A DNA stretch of 51,544 nt, filler included, from Actinobacteria bacterium UBA7524 (GTDB lineage: Bacteria; Actinomycetota; Coriobacteriia; Anaerosomatales; UBA912), in NCBI GenBank assembly GCA_002478275.1. It is 5 parts of 5 records of this genome, joined end to end, with 100 filler letters (N's around TTAATTAATTAA, not from the genome) between each part and the next. Parts side by side here need not be neighbours in the genome. Positions count along the whole stretch, not along the records: positions 8,752 to 15,866 come from DLMY01000008.1; 4 more parts are not named here. One strand, 5' to 3'. Made by a program: the position numbers. How positions within the stretch are numbered: the first letter of the stretch is position 1; each line of letters begins with the position of its first letter. Shown in pieces: positions 9,001-11,220 of this stretch.

Positions 9001-11220
9001 NNNNNNNNNNNNNNNNNNNNNNNNNNNNNNNNNNNNNNNNNNNNNNNNNNNNNNNNNNNNNNNNNNNNNNNNNNNNNNNNNNAGCTCACTGGTCAAGTGG
9101 ACATGCGCCGATAATTCACGGGGCTCAAGCATGGTACCGAAGCGGCGGACTTCACTATGTGGAGTGGTAGGGGAGCATTCTGTACGGGTCGAAGTCGGCG
9201 GGTGACCGTCGGTGGACTGTACAGAAGAGAGAATGCTGGCATGAGTAACGAGAGAAACGCGAGAAACGTTTCCGCCGTAAGCCTAAGGGTTCCTGGGCAA
9301 CGCTAATCGTCCCAGGGTCAGTCGGGAGCTAAGGCGAGGCCGACAGGCGTAGTCGATGCACAACAGGTGGACATTCCTGTACCACCGATAGCGCGTTATC
9401 ACCGATGGGGTGACGGAGAAGGGTAGCTGGGCCGGGCGTTGGTTGTCCCGGTTTAAGGCTGTAGGGCGTGAGATAGGTAAATCCGTCTCACATGAAGCCT
9501 GAGAGCTGATGACGAGTCGAATGCGGCGAAGTCAGTGATCCCATGCTTTCAAGAAAAACCTCTAGGGAGTTCTATCGGTGCCCGTACCCCAAACCGACAC
9601 AGGTAGGCAGGTAGAGAATACCAAGGCGATCGAGATAACTATGGTTAAGGAACTCGGCAAAATTGCTCCGTAACTTCGGGAGAAGGAGCGCCTCGGCCCG
9701 TGACTATCTTCGCGGTAAGAGCGGACTGAGGCCGCAGTGAAACGGCCCAAGCGACNNNNNNNNNNNNNNNNNNNNNNNNNNNNNNNNNNNNNNNNNNNNN
9801 NNNNNNNNNNNNNNNNNNNNNNNNNNNNNNNNNNNNNNNNNNNNNNNNNNNNNNNNNNNNNNNNNNNNNNNNNNNNNNNNNNNNNNNNNNNNNNNNNNNN
9901 NNNNNNNNNNNNNNNNNNNNNNNNNNNNNNNNNNNNNNNNNNNNNNNNNNNNNNNNNNNNNNNNNNNNNNNNNNNNNNNNNNNNNNNNNNNNNNNNNNNN
10001 ACGGCGGCCGTAACTATAACGGTTATTCTGCTACCGGAATGGCCGTTACAAAACCCGGCTATATGCTGGAACACCTGAGTATCCCACGCTACCTCCCAAG
10101 CATGTCAGACCCGTTCTGTATGCTTGACATGGTGAAAATGCGATGGGTGCAGGCAATCAGCAGGAAAGGCCGGTGGGCGCATATGCGACTTCGTCGTGAG
10201 TTGACGCCTGATTACATCTCCGGATTCGTGGACGGTGAAGGATGCTTCTGTGTGAGTATCCGTCGACATCCAAGCGCACCGCACGGTTGGTTCATGCAAC
10301 CGACGTTTCAGGTATACCAGCACGAATGCAACGCTGGGATTCTTGAAGGGCTGCGGGAGTACTTCGGGTGCGGACGCCTGTCCCACAAAGGTCCGAACAG
10401 CTCAGTCATGACGTATTCGATCTACGCGAGGCGTGACCTCGTTGGACGGATCGTTCCATTCTTCGACGAGCACCCGCTCGTCTCGGAGAAGCAAAGAGAC
10501 TTCGAGCGGTTCAGAGAGGTGCTACTGCGTTTGGTTCGCAAGGAGCATCTGGACCCGGAAGGATTCGACGAGATGGTCAGGATCGCGTTCGAGATGAACG
10601 CTCACGGCAAACAGCGCAAATATCGATTGGATGATGTGCTCATCGGAATCCTCAGAGACTGCACGCCGGGCGCGTCACGTAGTGACGTAAAGATACAGTC
10701 CGAGCCCCATGGCGACATGGGGAGCTGGACAGAAATGATCCAGCCGGCGCTTCTATAGCGCTAGTAACAATACTGCCTAAGGTAGCGAAATTCCTTGNNN
10801 NNNNNNNNNNNNNNNNNNNNNNNNNNNNNNNNNNNNNNNNNNNNNNNNNNNNNNNNNNNNNNNNNNNNNNNNNNNNNNNNNNNNNNNNNNNNNNNNNNNN
10901 NNNNNNNNNNNNNNNNNNNNNNNNNNNNNNNNNNNNNNNNNNNNNNNNNNNNNNNNNNNNNNNNNNNNNNNNNNNNNNNNNNNNNNNNNNNNNNNNNNNN
11001 NNNNNNNNNNNNNNNNNNNNNNNNNNNNNNNGTAGGACGGAAAGACCCCGTGAACCTTTACTACAGCTTGACATTGGTCACTGGTTTGTCGTGTAGAGGA
11101 TAGGTGGGAGGCTTTGAAGCTGGGGCGCCAGCCCTGGTGGAGCCAACCTTGGAATACCACCCTCGTCAGATTGGTGATCTAACCCCGCGCCGTGAATCCG
11201 GGCGGGGGACCGTGTCAGGT

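Follow-up and report, generated by a model that had tools for sequence, protein, structure and literature searches.

A 23S rRNA gene that is split by an insert with an open reading frame of its own raises the question of which kind of element has entered the gene, at which position, and how it would leave the transcript. Within the window, the whole stretch of 51,544 nucleotides that was analysed, Rfam matches to LSU_rRNA_bacteria flank the insert on both sides, as expected from an earlier note that had described the gene as interrupted, and a search of the whole genome finds all of its LSU matches on the same contig (C56). The gene is partial at its 5′ end, as the contig begins within it, and it is followed by a 5S rRNA gene in the layout of a bacterial operon. 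The earlier note had placed both exon junctions in N-masked stretches and had regarded the splice site and the type of splicing as unreadable. Both junctions lie in fact in readable sequence and are exact: the stretch 10001-10797 begins with 23 nt of 5′ exon (10001-10023), continues with an insert of 752 nt (10024-10775) and ends with 22 nt of 3′ exon (10776-10797), and the junction register is unambiguous in the sequence. The 5′ exon piece ends in AACTATAACGGT, whose final T corresponds to E. coli nt 1923, and the 3′ exon piece reads CCTAAGGTAGCGAAATTCCTTG. For the numbering we used L092, in which the rRNA spans 385-3287, the flanking motif 2296-2321 and its T is found at 2307; in the annotated 23S rRNA of E. 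coli NZ_CP069386.1 this T is nt 1923. The insertion is located after nt 1923 of the 23S rRNA, on the 3′ strand of helix 69, which is the I-CeuI site.

The four N runs inside the gene are native scaffold gaps of the assembly and not masks. The assembly contains N runs of 2-643 on many contigs, 20,412 N in total, and the sole 643-nt run is located on another contig. Compared to the complete 23S rRNA of G016, a genome of the same order, the four runs overstate the missing sequence by about 161, 111, 130 and 149 nt. Of the 0.8-1.3 kb of extra sequence that had been ascribed to the gene, the insert makes up exactly 752 nt, and the remainder is accounted for by these over-estimated gap lengths. A second insertion hidden within the N runs was ruled out, since the runs are scaffold gaps of the kind found throughout the assembly. 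As the intron piece lies between two such gaps, its link to the host rests on scaffolding. The coordinates of all features are collected in Table 1.

Table 1. Features of the interrupted rRNA operon and of the intron, with positions counted along the whole window.
Feature	Position	Strand	Basis
23S rRNA gene, 5′ exon part	8752..10023	+	LSU_rRNA_bacteria matches, sequence, E. coli numbering
Scaffold gaps in 5′ exon part	8892-9082, 9756-10000		native N runs
Group I intron, 752 nt, after 23S nt 1923 (helix 69)	10024..10775	+	sequence, fold, covariation
P1: exon AACGGT 10018-10023 with internal guide GCCGTT 10042-10047	10018..10047	+	covariation
P3 5′ strand CCCGGC, pairs with GCCGGG 10665-10670	10054..10059	+	covariation; both-sided changes in 4/6 pairs, 99% of cells paired
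P4-P5 domain	10064..10162	+	covariation; P5b from fold of this copy
P4	10064-10069 with 10157-10162		invariant
P5	10074-10077 with 10150-10153		both-sided changes in 3/4 pairs
P5a	10083-10089 with 10140-10147		both-sided changes in 6/7 pairs
P5b hairpin	about 10101-10131		poorly conserved, 64.5% of cells paired
P6: GGA 10163-10165 with TCC 10649-10651	10163..10651	+	encloses L6 and most of the endonuclease gene
LAGLIDADG_1 homing endonuclease gene, 191 aa from ATG 10183 (probable start)	10183..10758	+	ORF, Pfam, PDB comparison
Catalytic core, 3′ half	10657..10700	+	Rfam alignment, covariation
P7: GACTG with CAGTC	10657-10661 with 10696-10700		Rfam-aligned
P3 3′ strand	10665-10670		
P8 hairpin	10672-10688		
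J8/7: AAAGATA			
P9, P9.1, P9.2 region	10705..10761	+	covariation
P9, GCGA loop	10705-10722		both-sided changes in 6/7 pairs
P9.1	10724-10744		both-sided changes in 5/6 pairs
P9.2	10747-10761		both-sided changes in 5/5 pairs
23S rRNA gene, 3′ exon part, begins CCTAAGGTAGCGAAATTCCTTG	10776..12022	+	LSU_rRNA_bacteria, sequence
Scaffold gaps in 3′ exon part	10798-11031, 11443-11664		native N runs
5S rRNA gene, downstream of 23S	12139..12253	+	Rfam 5S_rRNA, 97.1 bits

With considerable confidence, we assign the insert as a 752-nt group I intron that belongs to a family of 1923 introns widespread in bacterial MAGs. The exon base preceding it is a U and its last base a G (the omega-G at 10775). In an alignment of 32 homologous introns at the same site (A1), the U·G pair at the 5′ splice site is found in all 32 sequences, this intron included, and each intron ends in G. 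The pairing of the exon with the internal guide in P1 is itself subject to covariation, as in eight of the 32 introns the exon variant AACCGT coincides with the guide GCGGTT, in a compensated G-to-C change where the covarying pair is GC in 21, CG in 8 and GU in 3 cases. When testing 69 pairs in 12 helices of A1, we find 94.5% of cells to be paired compared to 82.2% in shuffles, 43 pairs to be changed on both sides compared to 25.0, and a covariation score of 0.361 compared to 0.124, with none of 500 shuffles being as high as observed; in a control where the 3′ partners were slid by 1-3 columns, just 30-44% remained paired. P4 and four of the five P7 pairs are invariant and hence uninformative for covariation. 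In this intron, P1, P3, P4, P5, P5a, P7, P9, P9.1 and P9.2 are fully formed and P6 and P8 partly (three outer pairs and five of six pairs, respectively), whereas P5b is poorly formed, as are the inner pairs of P6, which covary in homologues and are shifted in this copy, and P10 does not exceed 1-2 pairs.

The match to the general Rfam model Intron_gpI (RF00028) at 10522-10722 is as weak as the earlier note had stated, with 26.8 bits (E 1.1e-4 in a search of the 797-nt stretch) and thus below the gathering score of 50. Its alignment covers only P7, P3′, P8 and P9, with J6/7-P7 (R) and J8/7 (S) at high posterior probability, and skips P4-P6 because the ORF sits in L6. The available text of Nawrocki et al. 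(2018, PMC6125680) describes the general model as insensitive, hence the subgroup-specific models used there. Based on its site and its homology with other 1923 introns, the intron most likely belongs to subgroup IB4. The splice sites, the position at nt 1923 and the covariation from P1 to P9.2 all support the initial proposal, in which a group I intron carrying a LAGLIDADG gene occupies a classic homing site of an rRNA gene. An archaeal-type bulge-helix-bulge intron, considered in view of an ORF that fills almost all of the insert, was dropped, as P1-P9.2 covary and the gene context is bacterial. A GAGUA/UACUC pairing across P5a, which would form a pseudoknot, appears by eye to be missing in several sequences and was left out of the tested structure.

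The longest open frame of the intron (10039-10758, 239 aa) contains the LAGLIDADG_1 domain (PF00961) that had been noted previously, with 72.4 bits compared to a cut-off of 23.1 (E 6e-20, residues 60-161), covering profile positions 1-101 of 102. A search of the whole genome with this profile gives a single match of 74.5 bits, at the same ORF. LAGLIDADG enzymes in the PDB match with E-values down to 2.8e-46, the single-domain 5gkk with 5e-30, and the assignment to the family by sequence is unambiguous. The protein has a single motif (ISGFVDGEGCF) in one domain, encompassing residues 54-208 of the 239-aa frame, whose GFVDGEG can be aligned to the motif in either domain of I-SmaMI-type and related enzymes. 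The Glu of this motif is catalytic in the LAGLIDADG family. With one motif per chain, the protein is predicted to be an endonuclease of the homodimer type. The previous description of an intact 239-aa frame holds for the domain, which is free of stops and frameshifts, but not for the entire frame, since its first 48 codons coincide with helices P1-P6 and probably have no coding function. The true start is probably ATG 10183, yielding a protein of 191 aa, and not 10039; in 21 of the 32 related loci, stops keep the frame closed until 86-105 nt into the intron. The gene is placed in loop L6, with its 3′ end overlapping P6′, P7, P3′, P8, P9, P9.1 and the P9.2 loop, which contains the stop codon TAG (10756-10758).

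In G016, the earlier note had located a homologous insertion of 717 nt with a decayed ORF at about 1927-1931. The homologue exists, but it measures 714 nt and follows nt 1931, a site 8 nt further downstream than that of the intron described here, and its ORF is intact, with 166 codons uninterrupted from an ATG. The two introns thus do not share a single site, and their guides differ, with GCCTTAG of the G016 intron pairing with the exon sequence CCTAAGGT. Both are members of the same ribozyme family, with an ATGCTGG-type P4, a 3′ end of the GTAACA type and an ORF in L6, and the proposed identity of 78-81% between parts of the two insertions holds in the conserved stretches of the 5′ and 3′ core. 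The two endonucleases are 38% identical. A specially close relationship of the ribozymes, which would support the host, was rejected as too weak, with the G016 intron ranking in the middle over whole halves (69.3% and 67.5%); in the P3-P6 core it is the closest, with 71 of 82 positions compared to 69 of 82 for the next. Short DNA matches of 22-32 nt in three other genomes of an order-wide search (G019, G075 and G108, E 4.5e-5 to 7.9e-4) are probably due to chance.

Alongside this intron, 39 related loci were found in public genomes, and the same family is frequent in MAGs of Actinomycetota, mainly of Acidimicrobiia. Of 401 genomes sampled from the class, only the one studied here has the 5′ signature of the 1923 intron, compared to 15 of 401 in a phylum sample that includes this genome. 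Among species-representative genomes, no near copy was found, with a best protein identity of 52-55% and a ribozyme identity of at most about 78%. In a tree of the endonucleases, the protein groups with others from site 1923, whereas 20 of 21 site-1931 proteins, including that of G016, form a separate clade with support of 100/99. A literature search by title and abstract found no paper on an rRNA intron in Actinobacteria or Acidimicrobiia. This is the same outcome as that of the earlier note, though public genomes hold many such introns. The element is of a known mobile kind, found in a bacterial group without an earlier description of it.

The group I intron Ce.LSU.5 encodes a LAGLIDADG endonuclease of the single-motif, homodimer type, as predicted for the intron described here. 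This intron of the chloroplast 23S rRNA gene of Chlamydomonas eugametos is found at the same insertion site, LSU nt 1923, and its endonuclease I-CeuI targets a site given as ‘n.1923 LSU’ in the available text of PMC3315327. The host is a plastid in one case and a bacterium in the other, and the comparison covers site and protein. I-CeuI (2ex5) is only distantly related in sequence (E 1.8e-9, 40.7 bits, compared to 161 bits for the best PDB match, which is of the I-OnuI/I-SmaMI kind) and, with many other LAGLIDADG structures scoring 100-161 bits, our protein is not a close relative of I-CeuI and is not assigned as its orthologue. Group I introns of the IB4 subgroup at LSU 1923 and 1931, two sites 8 nt apart, are listed for archaea, bacteria and organelles, frequently with LAGLIDADG genes, in a table whose accessible part does not contain the host lineage of this intron (PMC6125680). 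According to the available text of PMC11270868, bacterial 23S introns from Thermotoga, Simkania, Coxiella, cyanobacteria and CPR cluster near nt 1917-1952 and 2593-2657 and encode single-domain LAGLIDADG_1 proteins, as found here, with 1917, 1931, 1952, 2593, 2604 and 2657 named there as sites of LAGLIDADG_1 introns and 1923 not among them. The same text describes rRNA introns of bacteria outside CPR as limited to a few species, in contrast to a family that we find mostly in Actinomycetota MAGs.

Contigs that are 95-99% alike were found in sequencing runs of four studies and permit a view on selection. Between X3/X4 and this copy 32 codons differ, 21 of which synonymously, a pair of indels at 10623/10627 preserves the reading frame of the variants, and changes in ribozyme parts are located in loops or yield G·U pairs. 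Both the ORF and the helices are under purifying selection in these natural variants. We tentatively propose, as an interpretation that may well hold while falling somewhat short of probable, that endonuclease-bearing 1923 group I introns are common and undescribed in Actinomycetota, mainly in Acidimicrobiia, where they are often paired with a 1931 intron across an 8-nt micro-exon, and that the intron described here is the first in Coriobacteriia, was acquired by horizontal homing and is still selected in subsurface, groundwater and sediment populations. By analogy to characterised group I introns, the intron would be transcribed as part of the pre-rRNA, where the guide GCCGUU and the exon AACGGU would form P1. 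An external guanosine would then attack after U1923, and the terminal G (10775) would enter the guanosine site in P7, leading to ligation of the exons and restoration of helix 69. As in characterised LAGLIDADG homing endonucleases, the single-motif product encoded in L6 may act as a homodimer that cuts intron-less 23S genes near 1923, and repair from the intron-bearing copy would spread the intron.

We infer the organism of this bin to be the host. The intron could also be real and originate from another organism of the metagenome, such as an Acidimicrobiia-like actinomycete, and have been misplaced by the scaffolder, which we consider unlikely but far from negligible. The 797-nt piece is indeed an island between two native scaffold gaps, its exon flanks of 23 and 22 nt consist of universal sequence, and the intron unitig in a possible source run (X1, depth 25.2) is no longer than 812 nt, ending within the conserved exons. 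The rarity of the 1923 signature in the class compared to the phylum sample points in the same direction, and so does the occasional misbinning of rRNA contigs, as illustrated by near-identical introns filed under an Acidimicrobiaceae and a Spirochaetaceae MAG (L013/L014). Conversely, the remaining four pieces of the gene on this scaffold follow the correct order and match their counterparts in the 23S rRNA of G016 at 88-93%, the scaffolder needs read pairs that lead from unique intron sequence into these pieces, and neither for the protein nor for the ribozyme do the comparisons described above reveal a near copy in a species-representative genome; the P3-P6 core, being marginally closest to G016, adds a weak hint.

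Two further readings concern the state of the element itself. An intact ribozyme with an endonuclease gene that is decaying, inactive or poorly expressed, which would leave the intron to persist only by vertical descent, appears improbable. It draws on an extra base at 10182 that distinguishes this copy from the contigs of three other runs (X2, X3 and X4) and puts ATG 10143, the start position used by the G016 intron (reading MGAG(N/D)QQE), out of frame with the LAGLIDADG domain. This frame is thus closed, ending at TGA 10197, and the endonuclease either starts elsewhere (at 10183, or at 10129/10039) or is impaired. Owing to the same 1-nt difference, the 239-aa ORF reads through its long 5′ extension here, in a frame that is closed in X2-X4. 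Against decay, ATG 10183 is kept in all variants, 7 codons ahead of the motif and preceded by GGTG 7 nt upstream, and the uninterrupted domain matches nearly its entire profile. That the insert stays unspliced in the mature 23S rRNA, or is cut out without ligation in the manner of an RNase III intervening sequence, leaving the 23S rRNA fragmented, is a reading to which we attach very little probability. The Simkania 23S intron reportedly remains in the mature 23S rRNA. PMC11270868 cites a work whose title speaks of an ‘unspliced group I intron in 23S rRNA’, and P10 is weak in our case. Yet the intron has every core helix, the U·G pair and the terminal G, all of them conserved under covariation, and natural variants retain the helices. 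Moreover, helix 69 forms an intersubunit bridge, and 752 additional bases there would be difficult to accommodate. No RNA sequencing runs were listed as containing the stretch 10001-10797.

The case leaves the understanding of how such introns work unchanged. At this locus, automatic annotation was misled into a 239-aa ‘gene’ within the 23S rRNA gene, which also seemed to be longer by 1.3 kb, and introns of this kind disrupt the assembly and binning of rRNA and can defeat surveys based on 23S primers and probes. Their endonucleases form a reservoir of new specificities for the 1923/1931 region, a well-used meganuclease target. Together with the 39 related loci, the intron described here suggests that group I introns in rRNA genes are much commoner in uncultured Actinomycetota.

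In the Rfam search of the whole genome, all LSU matches belong to one interrupted bacterial 23S rRNA gene, which lies in pieces on either side of 10001-10797 and is followed by a 5S gene. The readable stretch starts with 23 nt of 23S exon (ACGGCGGCCGTAACTATAACGGT) and ends with another 22 nt (CCTAAGGTAGCGAAATTCCTTG), and since these two runs abut directly in intron-less genes such as those of E. coli and L057, a locus from a public genome, the insert between them is defined exactly, at junctions which the earlier note had assumed to be hidden in N stretches. In the annotated E. 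coli reference 23S (NZ_CP069386.1), whose rRNA is found at 385-3287 of the retrieved locus L092, the flanking motif covers 2296-2321 with its T at 2307, thus placing the last exon base at nt 1923. A passage in PMC3315327 uses the name 'n.1923 LSU target site' for the site of I-CeuI, and the mapping therefore bears out the proposed classic homing site.

Features of the interrupted 23S region
Feature	Position	Length	Remark
Insert	10024-10775	752 nt	exact, both junctions readable
P1 guide GCCGUU	10042-10047		pairs with exon AACGGU, U.G at splice site
Longest open frame	10039-10758	239 aa	contains the LAGLIDADG_1 domain
Likely endonuclease	from ATG 10183	191 aa	MRLRRELTPDYISGFVDGEG...
Small ORF	12421-12642		just downstream of 5S, MQERVQAALEKIRPALQADGGDVELVEV...GACRGCPMS...

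The extra sequence in this gene had been put at about 0.8-1.3 kb and the N runs regarded as masks. The genome contains 20,412 N in more than 100 gaps of 2 to 643 N, which occur on most larger contigs, and its only run of exactly 643 N lies on a contig other than that of the 23S gene; the four runs within 23S (191, 245, 234 and 222 N) can thus be identified as scaffold gaps. Judged by the complete 23S of G016, another member of the order, the sequence missing at these points should amount to ~30, 134, 105 and 73 nt, leaving the gaps too long by about 161, 111, 130 and 149 nt. The spread of 1,957 model positions over 3,283 nt is thus explained by the 752 nt of the intron and a gap over-estimate of ~550 nt; with the excess accounted for by this comparison to G016, the 23S gene shows no sign of a second insertion. 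Scaffold gaps are also found elsewhere, for example at 13760-13912, 28577-28773 and 48945-49097, and apparent insertions in other parts of this genome may likewise stem from over-long gaps, the excess amounting to 110-160 nt in 23S, where the lengths could be checked. The small ORF downstream of the 5S gene looks, as judged by eye, like a NifU/Nfu-type iron-sulfur scaffold domain.

The classic 1923 site is occupied by a well-formed group I intron that carries a homing endonuclease gene. The group I assignment made earlier is upheld by the U that precedes the insert and the G that terminates it, by the guide pairing in P1 and by covariation across P1-P9.2. The general Rfam group I model scores 26.8 bits, below its gathering score of 50, and its alignment places J6/7-P7 (UCAGAGACUGCACG) and J8/7-P7' (AAGAUACAGUCC) with high posterior probability. 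A protein search covering one genome per prokaryote species identified 579 relatives, and the best 80 loci were retained. Among them, 31 carry an insert of 696-801 nt between the same exon motifs, sharing both the guide sequence and the GTAACA...G end, and 8 further loci share the 5' junction. The window intron and the 31 homologous loci were aligned (A1; 32 rows, 891 columns), and a structure comprising P1, P3, P4, P5, P5a, P5b, P6, P7, P8, P9, P9.1 and P9.2 was written down from this alignment itself. Pairing is found in 94.5% of 2,192 cells compared to 82.2% in shuffles, 43 of 69 pairs are changed on both sides (25.0 in shuffles) and the covariation score is 0.361 (0.124 in shuffles), with 0 of 500 shuffles reaching these values on any measure. 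When the 3' partners were slid by 1-3 columns, 30-44% remained paired; the lead of the unshifted structure is partly expected because it derives from the same sequences, and the double changes are the stronger evidence for the fold. These amount to 4/6 pairs in P3, 6/7 in P5a, 6/6 in P8, 6/7 in P9, 5/6 in P9.1 and 5/5 in P9.2, while P4 and four of the five P7 pairs are invariant and hence uninformative either way, and P5b is weakly conserved (64.5% paired). The exon covaries with its guide, as AACCGU is accompanied by GCGGUU in 8 sequences (pair 10/37: GC 21, CG 8, GU 3). In the window row, P1, P3, P4, P5, P5a, P7, P9, P9.1 and P9.2 are fully formed, P8 with 5/6 pairs and P6 with its three outer pairs are partly formed, the inner P6 pairs are shifted and P5b is different. 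A spacing of just seven bases between P1 and P3 leaves P2 absent from this intron, and P10 consists of one or two pairs at most. Introns at LSU 1923 and 1931 are assigned to subgroup IB4 in a passage by Nawrocki et al. (PMC6125680).

The endonuclease domain is located in loop L6, and the 3' end of its reading frame traverses P6', P7, P3', P8, P9 and P9.1 to a stop within the P9.2 loop. Pfam detects one LAGLIDADG_1 domain (residues 60-161 of the 239-aa frame, 72.4 bits), the only one in the genome, with a motif reading ISGFVDGEGCF. Residues 54-208 match solved LAGLIDADG enzymes, including I-SmaMI and I-OnuI domains, at 100-161 bits, and the single-domain 5gkk at E 5e-30, whereas I-CeuI, which shares the 1923 site, matches at only E 1.8e-9. 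The frame reported previously is thus open and contains this domain, but its first 48 codons, which overlie P1-P6, are probably not coding, because stops close the frame as far as 86-105 nt into the intron in 21 of 32 other loci, because ATG 10039 is a GTG in X3, and because X2, X3 and X4, all sequencing runs containing natural variants of the intron, have one base fewer at 10182, which leaves 10039-10182 out of frame. This shorter version brings ATG 10143 into frame, with a start (MGAGNQQE...) equivalent to that of the ORF in the G016 intron, which is intact (MGAGDQQE...). Since the same frame terminates at TGA 10197 in the window copy, translation likely starts at ATG 10183, preceded by GGTG 7 nt upstream, with ATG 10129 in the window's own frame as alternative. 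The one-base difference at 10182 may also impair endonuclease expression in this copy.

The intron was found in contigs of four studies. A possible source run, not independent of the window, holds an identical 812-nt unitig (depth 25.2) that terminates within the conserved exons. The contig from a groundwater run (808 nt) shows 38 differences in addition to 3 indels, that from a subsurface run (736 nt) shows 40 differences, and a sediment run contributes two pieces ~99% alike; as contigs, these data leave rare variants invisible. In X3 and X4, 21 of 32 differing codons in 10183-10758 are synonymous, a deletion at 10623 is offset by an insertion at 10627 in the variants, and ribozyme changes are confined to the loops of P1, P5b, P8 and P9.2 or convert A-U to G.U (10127). 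This pattern suggests purifying selection on the protein as well as on the RNA fold. All four runs also contain intron-less junction contigs at high depth, which derive from many other bacteria sharing the universal exon sequence. In X2 and X3, short contigs join 10168-10173 to 10644-10646, so that the 5' strand of P6 nearly abuts its 3' strand; they match over 22-26 nt per side, one has 8 other letters at the join, and their resemblance to ORF-less relatives in other organisms is a weak hint.

By record title, 28 of the 39 site-1923 loci (31 and 8 of the best 80 of 579) are Actinomycetota, mostly Acidimicrobiia and several on megabase contigs or complete chromosomes, the remainder being labelled Acidobacteriota (5), Gemmatimonadota, Paceibacterota and Spirochaetaceae (1 each) or only 'bacterium' (3). 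A pattern combining 5' junction, guide and P4 was detected in 15 of 401 phylum-sample genomes, G000 (this genome) included, with 0 in the reversed control, and in G000 alone among 401 of its class, which include all 146 of the order; with many bins lacking rRNA genes, both counts are floors. In eight loci from Actinomycetota MAGs (L018, L021, L032, L034, L039, L044, L045, L049), the 1923 intron is followed by just the 8-nt micro-exon CCTAAGGT and a different second insertion at nt 1931, an arrangement of twin introns. The 714-nt insertion of G016 follows ...CCTAAGGT at nt 1931 and precedes AGCGAAATT, with GCCTTAG as guide. It is homologous as the earlier note had stated, belonging to the same ribozyme family with 78-81% identity in conserved core stretches, but the decay described there is not supported, as its ORF extends without interruption over 166 codons from the ATG, and its endonuclease is only 38% identical to that of the window. 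Introns at 1931 were found in 20 further loci of the best 80 of 579. A tree built from 56 intron-encoded proteins, excluding three spurious extractions, unites 20 of the 21 site-1931 proteins in a single clade (support 100/99) and places the window protein among site-1923 proteins, closest to those from two MAGs of Actinomycetota and one of Acidobacteriota (91/95). The proteins thus follow the insertion site, as is expected for homing endonucleases. L013 and L014, labelled Acidimicrobiaceae (153-kb contig) and Spirochaetaceae MAG (3.3-kb contig), carry near-identical 753-nt introns with a protein distance of 0.005, which points either to misbinning of an rRNA contig or to transfer in the very recent past. 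The 780-nt insert of L051 (Doudnabacteria MAG), found between the same exon motifs, has no GGCCGTT guide, ends in ...ATTAAG and encodes a LAGLIDADG protein that is highly divergent; this is a separate element situated at nt 1923 or close by.

Because the intron piece is isolated by scaffold gaps on both sides, has universal exon flanks and is unique in its class, its attribution to this host rests on the read pairs used by the scaffolder. An assignment to the wrong organism is nevertheless unlikely, at about one chance in four, as the adjoining parts of the 23S match G016 at 88-93% identity and follow one another in the correct order, and no near copy was found among representative genomes (one per prokaryote species). 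In line with the earlier note, which had found no rRNA introns from Actinomycetota in the papers searched, an independent full-text search, covering few subscription journals, retrieved nothing on group I introns in the rRNA of Actinobacteria or Acidimicrobiia. The text of PMC11270868 describes bacterial rRNA introns beyond CPR as confined to few species and places LAGLIDADG_1 in CPR 23S genes at 1917, 1931, 1952, 2593, 2604 and 2657, while its supplementary tables might list 1923. With the caveat on host assignment, the intron is ordinary in its mechanism and new in its host range.
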